The notes: a model not told the origin generated them from the sequence alone. Counted from the stretch's first letter, positions 20,693 through 26,433 are shown. The stretch: DNA of 64,000 bases from Minisyncoccia bacterium (GCA_038230075.1 JBBRNV010000003.1:29329-93328); one strand, 5' to 3'. Translations and numbers: made by a program.

Positions 20693-20712
20693 ATAGAGAA
20701 ATAAGTTTAAAA

Positions 20713-20745
20713 ATAATAACACCTAGGTGTTATTATTTTTTTATT
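20713..20745 (+). terminator. AT-rich palindromic terminator after gyrB, probably bidirectional
   Basis: ATAACACCTAGGTGTTAT perfect palindrome with an A-run before it and a T-run after it. Confidence 0.6.
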
Positions 20746-20812
20746 TATATAGATCAGAAATGACGAAGCCCACCGATGGCGGGTTCGCCATGATGGGCTG
20801 TTTTGCAAGATA

Positions 20813-21130
20813 TCAGACGGCACTTTCTGAGAGTGTGTCGTGCAGTAAAATGGCGGTTGCGTGCATTGCTTGTTGCAGGGTGGGAATGAGTCTCGTGGCG
20901 CAACCAAACGGAGTGATGTGCGTAAGAGTGGTACCACCATCAACAAGGATGAGATAATCGAACAGGGTATCTTCTTCGAGAGGAACTCCTGCTGCCGTAA
21001 GTTCAGCAGCTTGAAGATGTTTCGAGTGGTTTTGGCTGAGATCGTCTTCGCAAGAAAGCACAACATACACTCGGTCTGGTTGTTGCGAACGTACGTAGTT
21101 TATTCGGCCCTTCAGGAGTCTTATGATCAT
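20813..21130 (-). CDS. hypothetical protein in a GC-rich island
   Basis: 105-aa ORF with GC-rich codons (LILVDGGTTL motif); overlapping + strand ORFs look less protein-like; strand assignment is tentative. Confidence 0.3.
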   Translation of the reverse strand: MIIRLLKGRINYVRSQQPDRVYVVLSCEDDLSQNHSKHLQAAELTAAGVPLEEDTLFDYLILVDGGTTLTHITPFGCATRLIPTLQQAMHATAILLHDTLSESAV

Positions 21131-21242
21131 GTCGCTAGAGTTGGGGGTGGGTGGTATTTCGATTGGGTTGATTTGGCTCGAATGTAAAGTGGTTTGAAAG
21201 AGCCTTCATAGAGACTACCGCTCACACCTACCACTGTCAAAT

Positions 21243-21277
21243 AAACAAAAAACCACCGCTTGGGTGGTCTTTTGTTG
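21243..21277 (-). terminator. rho-independent terminator for the minus-strand gene ending at 21300
   Basis: ACCACC-GCTTG-GGTGGT hairpin; on the minus strand it is followed by TTTTTTGTTT. Confidence 0.6.
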
Positions 21278-21299: not shown

Positions 21300-22337
21300 T
21301 TACTGTCCGATGTTCAATGTGTTGTTTGATCGATTGATATCGTTAACTTTTGCATTCTGGTCTACAGTGATTGAACCAAAACTTTTTGTTGGACTAGTGT
21401 ATCCAAGGGTGAAGATAATGCCGTCACCTGGCTTTAATGATTTCTGTGAAGGAGATGCGTAACTTTGATTGTTTACATCAGATGAAGGAAGTGTTGCATT
21501 GAAGTTCCATGACCCAGAAACTGCTGATCCAATGTTTTGAACTTCGAATCGAACTGCTGCAATGTCTGAAGAAGTAACATCTCGCTTGAGTGTATCAAGT
21601 GATACGAACTGGTGATTCTGATTAAGAATTCCATATTTCACAAGTGTAACAGAAAGGTCTGGTGTTCCTCCGATGACTTCTTGATATTCTGATGTGTGAG
21701 TTGTTTGAGGAGCAACACTTGCTTCTGCTGGATCTCCACCTTCGTACGCTGTGTGCTGATGAGGAACCATTGTTGATGGAGGATTGATTTCTGTTCCAAG
21801 TTTAATATTGATTGAACTTGTTCCCATAGCAATGATCGATCGATCAGTGCTAGACATAAGGAAGGCTTGGAAATTACTCTTTACCTGACTTGATGTTGAA
21901 GATGCAAGATTCTGATTAAGAAGAGGTCGAAGAATAACATCGTATTCTGTTCGGTCTAATGTATTTGTTGTTGATGCAACAGGAAGAGAGAATCGCTGTC
22001 CACATTGAATAGCTTGAACAGATGCATTTCGCACAAGTTCATAGTTCGCTACATCTGAACATTCATATTGAAATGAATATGTTCCGGCAATAGTGCTAGA
22101 ATGAATAACTCGAAGCATGAATGGTTCACCTGATCGAACAACTGTTTTGTCAGGGGATACATTAAGCATTACGATTCCTGATGGAGTACTTGTTGAAGTA
22201 CCTTTAATATTTGAAAGCGCTGTTAATGCTCGAGGAATAAGTTTTACAATTCCGAAAGCAATGAGAAATAATACGACTACAATAACGATAATAAAGATGA
22301 CGCGCAGAACTTTGTATAATGTTGAATCTTGATTCAT
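21300..22337 (-). CDS. hypothetical membrane-anchored extracellular protein
   Basis: N-terminal TM helix (VLRVIFIIVIVVVLFLIAFGIV), Ser/Thr-rich beta-type sequence, no catalytic motif. Confidence 0.5.
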   Translation of the reverse strand: MNQDSTLYKVLRVIFIIVIVVVLFLIAFGIVKLIPRALTALSNIKGTSTSTPSGIVMLNVSPDKTVVRSGEPFMLRVIHSSTIAGTYSFQYECSDVANYELVRNASVQAIQCGQRFSLPVASTTNTLDRTEYDVILRPLLNQNLASSTSSQVKSNFQAFLMSSTDRSIIAMGTSSINIKLGTEINPPSTMVPHQHTAYEGGDPAEASVAPQTTHTSEYQEVIGGTPDLSVTLVKYGILNQNHQFVSLDTLKRDVTSSDIAAVRFEVQNIGSAVSGSWNFNATLPSSDVNNQSYASPSQKSLKPGDGIIFTLGYTSPTKSFGSITVDQNAKVNDINRSNNTLNIGQ

Positions 22338-22384
22338 ATGGTGAGACTATACACTGTTTTTAAGGTCCCGTCAAGTATTGATAT

Positions 22385-22413
22385 TTGACTTTTATCAACA
22401 AATGAGCTATAAT
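22385..22413 (+). promoter_or_regulatory. sigma70-like promoter for the sortase gene: TTGACT, 17 nt, TATAAT
   Basis: Near-consensus hexamers; the -10 ends 6 nt before the ATG and no SD is present, so leaderless transcription is likely. Confidence 0.55.
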
Positions 22414-22419
22414 GTTCCC

Positions 22420-23103
22420 ATGTCAAATTTGAAATCTATGTTAAAAAACTTGCTTTCTACCAACGAAATAATCTTTATTTCGATCTTTGGTCTTGTCTTT
22501 CTTTTCTCTTTTGTTGGACTCTACCTCTTTGGAGCTGTGCCTGATGAATTTCGGTACTCTATGAACAATAACTCTATTATTGATAATGTTGAATCTCTTA
22601 AAGATGGAAAGGAAGGCCTCACTAATTTACAAAATACAAATGCCGAATACGACAATAGTACTATTGGTCTTAAACCAACTCGTATTGTTATTGCAAACGC
22701 CAGTGTTGATTATGCAGTAGAAAATCCACAAAGCACTAATGTGAATATTCTCGACGAAGCCCTTAAACGTGGAGCTGTTAGATACCCAAGTTCAGGAACT
22801 CCTGATAAAGGAAATATGTTTATTTTCGGCCATAGTACGAGCTTTAAGGTGGTAAACAATAAAGCCTATGAAGTCTTTAATAACTTGAAAGAATTGAAAG
22901 CTGGAGATGATATTAAAATCATTACTGACAAAGAAACCTTTATCTATAAGGTACGAACCGTTGATCTAGTTGATAGTCGAAAAGCACTTGTTGACCTTTC
23001 AACTGACAGACACATGCTCACTCTTTCAACATGTAATAGCTTCGGAGCTAGTTCTGACCGATATGTTGTTGAAGCTGACTTTGACCACACAGAAACTATA
23101 TAG
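22420..23103 (+). CDS. sortase-family transpeptidase
   Basis: N-terminal TM anchor; conserved His (MFIFGHSTSF); catalytic Cys in TLSTC (the TLxTC sortase signature). Confidence 0.7.
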   Translation: MSNLKSMLKNLLSTNEIIFISIFGLVFLFSFVGLYLFGAVPDEFRYSMNNNSIIDNVESLKDGKEGLTNLQNTNAEYDNSTIGLKPTRIVIANASVDYAVENPQSTNVNILDEALKRGAVRYPSSGTPDKGNMFIFGHSTSFKVVNNKAYEVFNNLKELKAGDDIKIITDKETFIYKVRTVDLVDSRKALVDLSTDRHMLTLSTCNSFGASSDRYVVEADFDHTETI

Positions 23104-23157
23104 TAGGCTCTCACAAAAGTAGGGAATTACTACTCAAATAAGACCACAATGAAGTAC

Positions 23158-23185
23158 TTGACAAATCCTTTAATTATGATATGAT
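23158..23185 (+). promoter_or_regulatory. sigma70-like promoter: TTGACA, 16 nt, TATGAT, about 190 nt upstream of the GC-rich ORF
   Basis: Consensus -35 and good -10; the downstream leader holds two perfect hairpins, at 23270-23308 and 23320-23339. Confidence 0.45.
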
Positions 23186-23374
23186 AGTAAATGAAAGTAG
23201 AGTACATTAAAAACTTGTCAGACTAAAAAAAGAAAGTGTTGGTTGTAACAGGTTAAGAGATTCATTGGTGAAGGAAATAAGAACGAATTATTTGTTTTTA
23301 TTTCCTTCACTAAACAAAGTCTGCTTCTCACGAAGCAGATGGTGAATACTCAAACCCAGTAGACCCACACGACC

Positions 23375-24460
23375 ATGCCCACACCCTCCGAAATCCGCAA
23401 TCTCCGCCGCGCCGTTACCGCCGCAGCTGGAGACGTCACCCGCACGTGCTCCGAGAAGCAGGCCGCTGAGCTCGCGCTCCGCAACGCCCGTTCCGCCACC
23501 CCCGTCGTTCCCGCCAACGTGACCGCCGCTGAGCTCGCGCTCAGCAACGCCACCACCGCGCACGACGAGGCCCTAGAAGTCCACGAGGAAGCCCAAGAAG
23601 AACTCACCACCACGACTGCTCCCCAGCCGTCGTTCGTCAAGAAGAATTGGATTCCGCTCAGCATCGCTGTTGCGGCCGTCCTGGTCCTTCTCATGATGTT
23701 CATGTTCATGATGTCCCGCATCGCTTCTTCCGAAGCGCGCGCGAACAACATCGCGAACACGACCCAGACGGAGATCACCCGCCTCGAAGCCGCCAAGGCC
23801 AAGGCCACCAGCGAAGCTTCCCAGGCCGAAGCCGCCAAGGCCAAGGCTGTCGCCGAAGCCGCCAAGGCCGAAGCCGCGCGTCAGACCGCGCTCGCTGAAG
23901 CCTCCCAGGCCGAAGCCGGGCGTCTGCAAGCTGAACGCAACGCCAACGCCCTGAACGAAGCCGAAACCGCCCGCCAAAAGGCCGCCGCTCAAAAGGCCGC
24001 GTCCCTCCCAGCGAAGCGTTTCGACCTGGCCGCCGGTGAAATCCCGACCAAGCCCAGCATGTGGGCCATTGTCGAAGGAGGCATTGTAACTTCGAACACC
24101 TTGGCCAACTCCAAGCAGTTCGTGCCAGCAATGGGTGACACGATCGTCCTCACCGACGCCGTGACCCTCATCCATGTCGAGATGCCCCTCCTGAACAAGG
24201 ACGGATCGCCCGCCATGCGCGCCGACGGTATCACTCCCGTCGGAAAAGTTTGCATCTTCAAAGGCATCGGCATCGACGGACAGCGTTACGACTTCGCCCT
24301 CAAGGGAGGTCTGCGTGTGACCTTCGTCCCGCAGGGTAGCAATGGCAAGGTGCGTGAGCAAGAGCTCGCGACCCAGCTGCCTTCCGGCAATCGGCCAACC
24401 GCGGTTCAGACTCCGATGGTGCCCGTTCGTCGCGCCATTGCGGTTCCTCCAAAGTCCTGA
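23375..24460 (+). CDS. hypothetical single-pass membrane protein with an Ala/Glu/Lys-rich coiled-coil; about 65% GC island
   Basis: GC3-rich codons on the + strand, central TM helix (PLSIAVAAVLVLLMMFMFMM), AEAAKAKA repeats, duplicated AAELAL(R/S)NA segment. Confidence 0.55.
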   Translation: MPTPSEIRNLRRAVTAAAGDVTRTCSEKQAAELALRNARSATPVVPANVTAAELALSNATTAHDEALEVHEEAQEELTTTTAPQPSFVKKNWIPLSIAVAAVLVLLMMFMFMMSRIASSEARANNIANTTQTEITRLEAAKAKATSEASQAEAAKAKAVAEAAKAEAARQTALAEASQAEAGRLQAERNANALNEAETARQKAAAQKAASLPAKRFDLAAGEIPTKPSMWAIVEGGIVTSNTLANSKQFVPAMGDTIVLTDAVTLIHVEMPLLNKDGSPAMRADGITPVGKVCIFKGIGIDGQRYDFALKGGLRVTFVPQGSNGKVREQELATQLPSGNRPTAVQTPMVPVRRAIAVPPKS

Positions 24461-24491
24461 CAAGTCTACTCCAACAGGAGTCCCACTAAGT

Positions 24492-24545
24492 GGCCAGCAA
24501 GTAATCGAGTTCGCTCGAAATCCTTTGCTGGCCATTTTTGTTTAT
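24492..24545 (+). terminator. hairpin with T-run after the GC-rich ORF
   Basis: GGCCAGCAA ... TTGCTGGCC stem (24-nt loop), followed by ATTTTTGTTT. Confidence 0.4.
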
Positions 24546-24628
24546 ATGATTTGACTTTTTATACTATCTAATGTATAATGATTCTACTTATCCGTAAGAC
24601 GATAGGTTATCAAATTAATAATACTTTT

Positions 24629-26338
24629 ATGAACACATATACAATTATCAAAAAATTATCAGCAGGATTTCTAATCTTCGCTACTATTGCGGTATTTTCA
24701 GTGTCACAAGTGACACCTGTTCGTGCAGACGGAGAAGATGAAGGTGATGGATATGCAACGAACTACTTTGGTTCAGGTTCAGACTTTGGATCATATGGAT
24801 CAAATTACGAAACTCCTTCATATGCAACTAATTACGAAACACCGTCTTACGCAACAAACTATACTCCATACGCTACAAACTACAATTCTCCATCTTACGC
24901 TTCAAACTTTGATGCATTCGCAACAAACTACCAAACTCCTACATACGTAACAGACTACGGAGCTTTCGCAACAAACTATCAGACAACATCATATGTAACT
25001 GATTACGGAGCATACGCTACCAACTATGAAACTCCTACATATGCAACAAACTACCAAACTCCTACATATGCAACAGACTACGGAGCTTATGCAACAAACT
25101 ACCAAACTCCTACATATGCAACAGACTACGGAGCTTATGCAAGTAATTACCAGACTCCATCATACGCAACAGACTATGTTGCTTTTGCAACAGACTATGG
25201 TGCTTTCGCAACAAATTATAACTACCCAACAAACACATCATGTTCAACTTGTGGAACTACGTATAACCCAACTACATGTTCAACATGTGGATCAAGTTAC
25301 ACACCCACAACATATGTAAGTACACCTTCTTACAACTACCCAACAAACACATCATGTTCAACTTGTGGCACTTCATATGTTCCTCCAGTTCGAACACCAA
25401 CATATAACCCTCCGGTTTACACACCTACAACATACACACAGCCACCTACATACACTCCTCCAACATATGTTCCTCCTGTGCGATGTACAACTTGTGGAAC
25501 AATTCCTACAACACCTGTAGTGTATAATCCACCAACATACAATCCTCCTACATATAACCCTCCAACGTATATTCCTCCAGTTTACAACCCACCTGTATAC
25601 ATTCCTCCAACAACTTGTTCAACATGTAACTATGTTCCTCCTACCTACAATCCTCCAGTTTATTACAACAATAACTACACAGCATATTGTGTAGGAACAA
25701 CACGAGGAAACTCAATTGAATGGAATATCTTCATTACAAACAACATCTACCACTTTACTCCAATAGTGTCATGGACAGGATCAAACGGATTCTATGGATA
25801 CGGTTCAACTGCTACTTACACATATCCAAACGGAGGTGTGCAGACAGCAAATGCAACTGTTAACTTGAATGGTCAGATTCAGAATGTGTCATGTACTTCA
25901 ACAACTGGTGGTGGATACGTTTCAGTTAATGAAAATCCAGGTGGAGTATATCTAAGTTCAATTCCTGCTACTGGCCTCTCAGCCAATATGAAGAACGTTC
26001 TCTTCATGGTAGGACTCCTTATGTGGTCAGCCTTCCTTGCATACATGTACGTTGCACGACGAAACTCTTCAATGAAATTCGCTCATGCACTTAACGGAAA
26101 TGCAGCAGGAGACTCTGTCTCAGAAGATGCAAGCGCATCAACTGAAGTAATAAGTCAGTCAGTTGATTCAAAAATCTCTGATATGGCTCGAGCAAAGAAT
26201 GTACTTCTTTCACACGACGCACTTCAATCTCTTGTAAATGCAGGTGAGTCACATGCATCAGCTGTACTTGCAAAGGTTGCAAACAATGGTGAATGGTCAA
26301 CTCTGAACAAAGCGAAAGTAGAAGAATTGTTAGGATAA
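24629..26338 (+). CDS. secreted repetitive surface protein with a C-terminal TM helix
   Basis: Signal peptide; tandem YATNYQTPT-type repeats; PPTYNPPVY Pro-rich repeats; three NTSCSTCG(T/S) units; IPATG followed by a hydrophobic helix and RR, then a roughly 100-aa tail. Confidence 0.65.
   Translation: MNTYTIIKKLSAGFLIFATIAVFSVSQVTPVRADGEDEGDGYATNYFGSGSDFGSYGSNYETPSYATNYETPSYATNYTPYATNYNSPSYASNFDAFATNYQTPTYVTDYGAFATNYQTTSYVTDYGAYATNYETPTYATNYQTPTYATDYGAYATNYQTPTYATDYGAYASNYQTPSYATDYVAFATDYGAFATNYNYPTNTSCSTCGTTYNPTTCSTCGSSYTPTTYVSTPSYNYPTNTSCSTCGTSYVPPVRTPTYNPPVYTPTTYTQPPTYTPPTYVPPVRCTTCGTIPTTPVVYNPPTYNPPTYNPPTYIPPVYNPPVYIPPTTCSTCNYVPPTYNPPVYYNNNYTAYCVGTTRGNSIEWNIFITNNIYHFTPIVSWTGSNGFYGYGSTATYTYPNGGVQTANATVNLNGQIQNVSCTSTTGGGYVSVNENPGGVYLSSIPATGLSANMKNVLFMVGLLMWSAFLAYMYVARRNSSMKFAHALNGNAAGDSVSEDASASTEVISQSVDSKISDMARAKNVLLSHDALQSLVNAGESHASAVLAKVANNGEWSTLNKAKVEELLG
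24770..25215 (+). repeat. in-frame tandem nucleotide repeats (27-nt and about 54-nt periods) encoding YATNY/YATDYGA units
   Basis: Near-identical copies such as actcctacatatgcaacagactacggagcttatgcaacaaactaccaa occur repeatedly. Confidence 0.8.
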
Positions 26339-26341
26339 TAA

Positions 26342-26433
26342 AAAAGAAAAACACTAGATTTGTTACTCAGTCCTCAGTCTTCAGAATCTTATTGAAGGCT
26401 TGCAGGATGGTTTCAAACTAGTGTTTTTCTTTT
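26342..26433. terminator. long inverted repeat between the convergent repeat-protein gene and hisS
   Basis: AAAAGAAAAACACTAG ... CTAGTGTTTTTCTTTT 16-bp stem with a roughly 60-nt loop; runs of A on one side and T on the other. Confidence 0.5.

Follow-up and report, generated by a model that had tools for sequence, protein, structure and literature searches.

A probable dedicated sortase-substrate cassette with an extended sorting signal and a clamp-loader-lid-like cytoplasmic tail in a Minisyncoccia bacterium

In a 64,000-nt stretch of DNA from a Minisyncoccia bacterium (GCA_038230075.1 JBBRNV010000003.1:29329-93328; this whole stretch is hereafter the window, and positions are counted from its first letter), a sortase gene is followed on the same strand by the gene of a repetitive secreted protein that carries an IPATG pentapeptide, a hydrophobic helix and a pair of arginines ahead of a long C-terminal tail. 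The sortase open reading frame (ORF) spans 22378-23103 on the plus strand, with ATG 22420 as the likely start (22420..23103), and the resulting 227-aa product is already recorded in the public protein collection. It matches the Pfam family Sortase (PF04203) with 70.9 bits against a cut-off of 26.6, has an N-terminal transmembrane (TM) anchor at aa 17-40, and contains the catalytic His in FGHS (aa 136-139), Cys in TLSTC (aa 201-205) and Arg in DRYVV (aa 213-217). All three motifs are kept across 46 non-redundant sortases from related loci, and the catalytic residues align with those of the closest solved relative, the C. perfringens enzyme SrtD (4d70, E=3.5e-7), the nearest structures being class D and A enzymes. 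Judging from the family match and the conserved His, Cys and Arg, the gene is intact, and the sortase that the initial annotation had recognised from TLSTC and a conserved His is confirmed. Among the NCBIfam models of sortase classes A to F, the best scores come from class D (52-53 bits, cut-offs 140-165), followed by class E (40.7, cut-off 160), with class C lower still and matching aa 163-233 alone; the generic sortase model TIGR01076 reaches 38.8 against 39.35. Because the protein falls below every class cut-off, we assign it to an unclassified sortase lineage.

The ORF of the putative substrate begins 1475 nt after the sortase stop codon, on the same strand, as the earlier estimate of about 1.5 kb had it. 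The precursor is encoded at 24629..26338 on the plus strand (569 aa), or has 586 aa if translation starts at ATG 24578; residue numbers below count from the latter start. A signal peptide can be read from the sequence at aa 18-50 (MNTYTIIKK-LSAGFLIFATIAVFSV-SQVTPVRA, followed by DG), after which come Tyr/Thr/Asn repeats (aa 58-219), CxxC and Pro-rich repeats (aa 220-367) and a globular domain (aa 368-454). Repeat counts located all the elements from which the 569-aa signal-peptide protein had been described, namely YATNYQTPT units, Pro-rich repeats and three CSTCG units: there are 14 units of the form Y[AV][TS][ND][YF], including 7 exact copies of YATNY and 2 of YATNYQTPT, 10 units of the form PP[TV]Y, and, besides the three exact CSTCG units, one CTTCG and one CSTCN. 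At the DNA level, Tandem Repeats Finder reports arrays in this gene with periods of 15, 21, 27, 48, 75 and 123. The protein is identical to the cluster representative P0002, although a look-up of the exact 586-aa product retrieved no contig, and its globular domain shares 48% identity with the final immunoglobulin-like (Ig-like) repeat of its nearest homologue, P0001. The ectodomains found among the family members are of the Ig-like kinds PKD, SpaA and fn3, and the Pfam scan gave no SpaA match for the window protein.

The globular domain is followed by a 42-aa segment, here called the sorting module (25940..26065, plus strand), which reads GGVYLSS-IPATG-LSANMK-NVLFMVGLLMWSAFLAYMYVA-RRN. The succession of IPATG (25961-25975, aa 462-466), TM helix (25994-26056, aa 473-493) and RR (aa 494-495) after the globular domain is the one that had been reported initially, and AlphaFold2 (AF2) predicts the TM segment as a helix with confidence. 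A motif scan and a hidden Markov model (HMM) of the module found a single motif-plus-helix segment within a long ORF in the window, and the HMM derived from alignment A2 gives the substrate ORF 80.8 bits. P0001 shares YLSSIPATG..K..LF..GL.MWSAFL.Y.YVARRN nearly throughout, yet terminates 13 aa further on. A profile of 52 columns made from the window and P0001 segments, with 33 columns weighted equally in the query, was searched against 1.84 billion cluster representatives and retrieved 168 of them at E<=1e-3. Among the matches listed, a [VIL]PxTG motif in register, the helix and [KR][KR] are present in 150 of 150, so that alignment of homologues, the check proposed at the outset for [IL]PxTG plus helix plus RR, shows all three elements to be conserved.

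The common 46-aa module can be written as GVYLSQ-[VIL]PxTG-x5-K-xxLFxxGLxxWSAxxAY-[KR][KR], and its full consensus is v-s-G-V-Y-L-S-Q-[VI]-P-[YA]-T-G-i-s-x-N-l-K-x-x-L-F-x-x-G-L-x-x-W-S-A-f-x-A-Y-x-x-x-[kr]-[RK]-[KR]. VPYTG (48), VPATG (29), IPATG (24) and IPYTG (16) are the main motif variants among the matches listed, others being rarer; the first residue is mostly V or I, with L in 10/149. Columns that were identical in the query and nevertheless vary among the 149 include W (141), S (144), F (139) and K (124). The sole fully invariant positions are L(-3), P, T and G (149/149 among the matches listed), an invariance that is partly circular, since hits and loci were collected with profiles and patterns containing the motif; despite this circularity, the strongest constraint seen in the alignments coincides with the core of the sortase motif.

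Related loci were gathered with an IPATG-type pattern, and a VPYTG-type metagenome scan added 80 loci; an alignment of 59 signal sequences was too diverse for collecting loci, and narrower alignments were used. The fetched loci, each up to about 20 kb and 1.17 Mb altogether, were pooled and de-duplicated for the counts. A same-strand sortase gene ends at most 200 nt upstream of the module gene in 37 of the 54 non-redundant cases with enough upstream DNA, and in 5 more, the window included, it lies 0.9-1.9 kb upstream, which brings the total within 1.9 kb to 42/54. Conversely, 50 of the 51 sortase ORFs in the fetched loci have a module gene at a distance of 2.6 kb or less. On the P0001 contig, the substrate gene follows the sortase gene after 36 nt. 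The order gyrB, CARDB-like gene (minus strand), sortase, module protein and aminoacyl-tRNA synthetase (aaRS; minus strand) recurs in the window and in loci L001, L003-L007, L010, L011 and L013; by source, it is seen on the P0001 contig, where the minus-strand gene ahead of the sortase encodes a small membrane protein, in loci from six further genomes retrieved with the IPATG-type pattern, and on the contigs of P0020, P0085 and P0034; the P0011 contig retains sortase, substrate and aaRS, with different upstream genes. A convergent class II aaRS gene follows the substrate gene in 29 of 34 sortase-substrate loci. The cassette thus occupies a conserved housekeeping site (gyrB ... aaRS, dnaE) across a lineage of the candidate phyla radiation (CPR). 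In no fetched locus did we find two module genes, and at least two assemblies have a second copy elsewhere (L005/L008 in one metagenome-assembled genome (MAG), L046/L057 on one contig). As a rule, a sortase gene is accompanied by a single substrate gene next to it. The initial annotation had proposed to regard its reading as refuted if no other gene in the genome carried a similar C-terminal signal; because a single adjacent substrate is typical, the absence of such genes is not a valid refutation.

In the window protein, 90 residues follow RRN. An earlier count of about 95 was thus slightly high, and the long in-frame tail itself stands: the junction between RRN and the tail contains neither a stop codon nor a frameshift, and the GC content at third codon positions (GC3) of the tail, 0.22, corresponds to host codon usage. 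The tail begins with a low-complexity, acidic and Ser-rich linker (26066..26158, aa 497-527), which is variable in the alignments, and ends with a domain (26159..26335, aa 528-586) with the predicted order helix-strand-helix-helix-strand-helix, which resembles the lid of AAA+ proteins and clamp loaders. An AF2 model of residues 454-586, made from 25 aligned sequences, contains the confident TM helix, a disordered linker with a predicted local distance difference test score (pLDDT) below 50 (model residues 54-64; block means 47-48 across residues 51-70) and the compact domain with pLDDT >=90. The domain, about 60 aa long, has invariant A-R and S and the consensus xxEEYARxxKVLLSxDAxxxIVKLxRxGxxxAxxxIxSxxxGEWxxxGExxI. 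A phmmer search with the window tail (88 aa) against the tails of the family gave 30 matches at E<1e-3, and the HMM of the tail matches 52 of the 151 family members (the cluster representatives over which all tail classes were counted), in every case C-terminal to the TM helix.

Tails past the helix have at most 15 aa in 26 of these proteins, 16-45 aa in 72, 46-140 aa in 38 and more than 140 aa in 15. A long tail after the signal, which had been called unusual, is therefore common, with more than 15 residues past the helix in 125/151, and that of the window protein is a conserved folded domain. Tails that end in F[KR]xx[NQ]...[KR] number 65/151. The commonest type, of 20-45 aa and ending in ...[IA]xxFKxxNxxKKG (for example, in P0011, P0050, L005-L007 and L015), is unrelated to the lid domain. 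The same collection bears on a trivial explanation of the window protein, namely, that the tail is a separate small gene fused to the precursor by a sequencing or assembly error. A Met does open the tail immediately past the basic cluster (RRNSS), as a fused gene would have it; but the module and the tail occur together in 52/151 proteins from many independent assemblies, and in L009-L013, and the tail is in frame, with host codon usage and no nearby stop. Given the recurrent architecture and the codon usage, we rejected a fused gene, which we regard as hardly credible.

The fold of the tail was compared at two levels. For the window tail, a profile search of the PDB put RFC5/RFC4 first (E 0.005-0.03), aligned on the lid region, and Foldseek returned only AAA+ lids (the N-terminal domain of Pol epsilon subunit B, RuvBL1/2, clamp-loader delta, RFC and NtrC1) at weak E-values of 0.16-5, the top match to the tail model being 7pfo chain A, from a human replisome complex. 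About a dozen relatives have longer tails in which the lid continues into a helical extension that is itself conserved and in most has 116-118 aa; these C-terminal regions of about 195 aa occur, for example, in P0092, P0063, P0034, P0096, P0025, P0110, P0095, P0107 and P0067, and a long-tailed member is encoded at 10001-13243 of L013. With hhalign, the short-tail profile aligns with the first 75 columns of the long-tail profile (98.4%, E 5.6e-15). The AF2 model of lid plus extension has a pLDDT of 81, and in a Foldseek search all of its top 50 matches were clamp-loader subunits (50/50; best E 1.3e-4, probability 1.0, about 190 columns), among them E. coli gamma/tau, delta and delta', B. subtilis delta, and yeast and human RFC. 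Through the long tails, the link of the window tail to the lid domain is a strong one. Neither Walker motifs nor a domain I ATPase was found in the 90-aa tail, and the long tails align to the C-terminal ~190 columns of clamp loaders only; domain III (the collar) is absent from the window protein, which ends directly after the lid. An HMM profile of lid plus extension found nothing meaningful among PDB sequences or in Pfam, and with the HMM-level searches silent, the relation to clamp loaders rests on predicted structure together with the marginal RFC profile match. As modelled, tails of these two kinds are clamp-loader-like domain II, or domains II and III, without the ATPase domain. Our best guess for the tail is a role in protein-protein contact, by which the precursor before cleavage, or the remnant after it, would be held, clustered or docked at the cytoplasmic face.

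Taken together, these results make it probable, although by no means certain, that in the window a Paceibacteria-type CPR bacterium encodes a sortase together with its own dedicated substrate, which has an extended sorting signal specific to the lineage and a tail that resembles the lid of clamp loaders; cleavage is deduced from what is known of sortases. Of the two possibilities raised initially, a sortase substrate with a long cytoplasmic tail is favoured by the conservation of the motif and by the genomic linkage to the sortase. The other, in which IPATG is a chance motif, we rejected, given that the module is conserved in all 150 matches listed and that the gene is linked to a sortase gene. 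Under the favoured scheme, the precursor would be exported by means of its N-terminal signal peptide and would then be held in the membrane by the module, that is, by [V/I]PxTG, the helix with its F, G, W-S-A and A-Y residues, and the basic cluster. By analogy with the biochemistry of the sortase family, the adjacent membrane-anchored sortase would cut the T-G bond of IPATG and hand the ectodomain on to an acceptor, most likely the cell wall. What would be left after cleavage is the G, the TM helix and a cytoplasmic tail of about 90 aa. The topology agrees with the role of a substrate: a signal peptide, Ig-like ectodomains in the family, and the RR pair at the inner end of the helix. That the helix is conserved suggests recognition within the membrane, and the folded tail suggests a cytoplasmic contact, either prior to cleavage or as part of the remnant.

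Several observations weigh against this interpretation. None of the NCBIfam class A-F models matched the sortase at its cut-off, and the NCBIfam scan of the whole substrate, the LPXTG-anchor model included, returned 0 families at E<=0.1. An upstream sortase is absent from the fetched flanks of 12/54 module genes, in one of which (L046) the sortase lies just downstream. The invariance of the motif is in part circular, as said above. A canonical cell-wall sorting signal stops a few residues past the basic cluster, whereas 90 residues follow this cluster in the window protein. The fold matches of the window tail itself are weak (Foldseek E 0.16-5; PDB profile E 0.005), and the HMM profile of lid plus extension found no counterpart in the PDB or in Pfam. 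Cleavage and wall linkage are claims that we infer for family members by analogy, and the strong conservation of the helix could mean a stable rather than a transient role in the membrane. The latter point, along with the folded and conserved cytoplasmic domain, would be a trait of a stable membrane protein and not of a disposable sorting signal, and these traits, like the lack of a match to the LPXTG-anchor model, would fit a permanent type I membrane protein, such as an adhesin or receptor, with the module as a stable anchor and the lid-like domain as its cytoplasmic effector; the sortase would then either leave it uncut or have another protein as its target, for example the CARDB-like neighbour. 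However, the residues that never vary are the core of the sortase motif, L(-3), P, T and G, and not positions of the helix. Moreover, the gene directly follows the sortase gene in most loci for all tail types, each of which is represented among the P0001, P0011, P0020, P0034 and P0085 contigs and the loci of the IPATG pattern, including tails of 1-12 aa that are too short to be effectors; and the motif and HMM scans of the window found no [VIL]PxTG-helix segment in the CARDB-like protein. A permanent membrane protein hence appears to us quite unlikely.

If the protein is a substrate, its fate might still differ from the anchoring of monomers to the wall: the sortase could polymerise it into a pilus-like fibre by class C-like chemistry, or release it. 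The SpaA-type domains of P0025 and P0150, which have the prealbumin fold typical of Gram-positive pilins, and the conserved cassette of one sortase and one substrate are compatible with polymerisation. Against it, the best scores of the sortase come from the models of classes D and E, and the class C model scores lower, with a match limited to the C-terminal part noted above; the nearest solved structures belong to classes D and A; and the Pfam scan gave no SpaA match for the window protein itself. We consider either fate very unlikely.

The canonical LPXTG/sortase A system of Staphylococcus and Streptococcus resembles the cassette in its signal peptide, its pentapeptide with invariant P, T and G, the helix, the basic residues and the membrane-anchored His/Cys/Arg sortase. 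The module described here differs in that it starts with V or I and has an invariant Leu three residues upstream, within GVYLSQ; in that conservation extends to the sequence of the helix (K, LF, GL, WSA, AY); in that most members have 16-360 extra cytoplasmic residues; and in the lack of a match to the LPXTG-anchor HMM. Sortases with a dedicated adjacent substrate and a variant motif are known, namely class B SrtB-IsdC (NPQTN) and class D SrtD/SrtC-BasH/BasI (LPNTA). These pairs are similar in having one sortase gene beside its own variant-motif substrate, and the nearest solved relative of the window sortase is of class D, but no class cut-off is reached here and the cassette occupies a conserved housekeeping site across a whole lineage of the CPR. 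C-terminal sorting domains of other kinds, PEP-CTERM/exosortase, PGF-CTERM/archaeosortase and GlyGly-CTERM/rhombosortase (PMC3237569; bioRxiv 10.1101/2023.06.07.544157), likewise combine a lineage-specific, HMM-recognisable motif with a helix and a basic cluster and are paired with a processing enzyme; in contrast to these systems, the enzyme here is a true sortase, and the module is mostly internal, whereas CTERM domains lie at the extreme C-terminus.

A functional membrane remnant would have a precedent. In Streptococcus gordonii, as reported in PMC11326707, the C-peptide that remains of a sortase substrate is sensed by the SGO_1180 two-component system. That remnant consists of the helix and a few residues, whereas here it would include a folded domain of about 60 aa, or about 190 aa in the long forms. 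The likeness of these domains to clamp-loader subunits (DnaX gamma/tau, delta, delta', RFC2-5) lies in the resemblance of the tail to domain II, and of the long tails to domains II (lid) and III (collar); the differences are the missing domain I with its Walker motifs, the membrane tether behind a surface protein, an identity of 10-15% and, in the window protein, the presence of the lid only. In addition, the conserved Arg of the RFC motif GDMRRA aligns with non-conserved residues of the tail. The N-terminal domain of Pol epsilon subunit B (2v6z), a stand-alone lid-like domain that ranked second by E-value (E 0.35, template modelling score 0.57 on the target), shows that isolated lids can be protein-interaction modules, but it is eukaryotic and soluble, and the match is weak. 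One can envisage, although we think it unlikely, a two-in-one precursor, of which the fast-evolving ectodomain is cut off by the sortase and anchored to the wall while the membrane-tethered, ATPase-less, clamp-loader-like lid, or lid and collar, then acts alone in the cytoplasm. Such a remnant might report that surface assembly is complete, oligomerise through its collar, or dock on the replication or division machinery. If this were true, two-in-one precursors would be a new class of sortase substrates with a functional folded C-peptide.

Three promoter-like sites, each with an 11/12 match to the sigma-70 consensus, precede the three consecutive genes of the region, one ahead of each. A TTGACT-17-TATAAT site at 22385..22413 ends 6 nt before the sortase ATG, and another of this sequence at 24551..24579 overlaps the first possible ATG of the substrate (24578), both on the plus strand; the remaining promoter-like site lies at 23158-23185, before the ORF of the insert described below. 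These sites are consensus matches only, and their count in the region is not above that in shuffled sequences (10 vs 8.7). The near-consensus leaderless sortase promoter that had been proposed thus holds as far as the 11/12 site and its distance from the ATG are concerned, with the reservation that the density of such sites is no higher than in shuffles. Because the first site ends only 6 nt ahead of the ATG, a leaderless sortase transcript is plausible from its sequence; the overlap of the second site with ATG 24578 favours Met 24629 as the start of the substrate.

The gap between the two genes is filled by an insert of 1.15 kb and 60-70% GC (23330..24480) with an ORF of 361 aa on the plus strand (23375-24460), the GC3 of which is 0.75, compared to 0.24-0.27 in neighbouring genes. 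The encoded protein is rich in Ala at its N-terminus and comprises a single TM helix, a coiled coil of Ala, Glu and Lys (42-nt repeats in the DNA) and a C-terminal globular part of about 150 aa. Hairpins lie around the insert at 23256-23322, 23320-23339 and 24488-24537, and a search for a target-site duplication around it found none. In the seven closest syntenic loci, the sortase-substrate pair is present without the insert. The exact 361-aa ORF is absent from the protein collection, and neither a word-indexed protein search nor tblastn against phages detected homologues; the insert is not demonstrated to be part of the sortase system. Loci L010 (8139-9457) and L009 (15-1349), in which the substrates share the lid-type tail of the window protein, each contain two ORFs for secreted, Ala/Thr/Pro-rich coiled-coil proteins (190 and 192 aa in the former, 169 and 226 aa in the latter), with no detectable similarity to the 361-aa ORF. 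The pair in L010 lies between sortase and substrate, and that in L009 upstream of the substrate, the contig ending before any sortase; the GC content of these ORFs is 50-65%, and their GC3 is 0.51-0.65 vs 0.32-0.34. The recurrence of GC-rich genes in L009 and L010 argues against an assembly chimera and suggests that the sortase-substrate gap is a hot spot for compositionally foreign genes of secreted proteins.

Upstream of the sortase gene, on the minus strand, lies the gene of the CARDB-like membrane protein (21300..22337), which has an N-terminal TM helix and a weak C-terminal match to Pfam CARDB (E=0.0019, below the cut-off); its homologue in L010 has a precomputed CARDB hit. In 26 of the 34 sortase-substrate loci with room to see it, a homologue of this gene immediately precedes the sortase gene and is transcribed in the opposite direction, and the divergent protein may be a third member of the cassette. 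Between it and gyrB, there is a spacer of about 550 nt (20700-21250) with a GC content of 43-50%, which contains an ORF of 105 aa (20813-21130, minus strand) and is accompanied by terminator-like hairpins at about 20711-20735 and 21249-21275; an Rfam search at 20.6-21.4 kb gave no credible match, and the spacer is missing in L001, where gyrB abuts the gene of a small membrane protein. The gyrB homologue of L004 (4276-6352, from a Nomurabacteria MAG) is broken into four consecutive ORFs, which points to frameshifts, by sequencing error or in a pseudogene. At the other end of the cassette, the substrate and HisRS genes converge on a long-range inverted repeat at 26341-26433 (AAAAGAAAAACACTAG ... 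CTAGTGTTTTTCTTTT), which is probably a bidirectional terminator.

The window, with a GC content of about 37%, belongs to a small-genome bacterium with the standard genetic code: it encodes release factors of both the RF1 and the RF2 type, which rules out an alternative code, along with FtsEX, Obg, GatB, GAPDH, PheT, GyrB, HisRS, TruB, TypA, type IV pilus-type ATPase and platform proteins, and a few transporters. The Rfam scan of the window found two tRNAs only. The nearest relatives of the genes studied here come from Candidatus Paceibacterota, Nomurabacteria, Patescibacteria and Saccharibacteria. Sortases are common in CPR bacteria (PMC6744442), and 'sortase motifs' have been mentioned on CPR surface proteins (PMC5220378). 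Full-text literature searches found no description of the module, the cassette or the tails, and for none of module, tail and high-GC ORF is there a family in Pfam or NCBIfam. Word-indexed protein searches returned one relative only for the C-terminal 225 aa of the substrate and two fragments only for the tail alignment.

The present analysis defines a sorting module of 46 aa in CPR bacteria and shows that its pairing with one sortase, at a chromosomal position that is conserved, is near-obligate. A model derived from the module could serve to annotate hundreds of surface proteins now called 'hypothetical', in organisms that spend their life attached to other cells. Clamp-loader-like cytoplasmic domains behind such a signal are unexpected for a sortase substrate, and they provide a testable handle on a possible coupling of envelope assembly to the cytoplasm in ultra-small cells.

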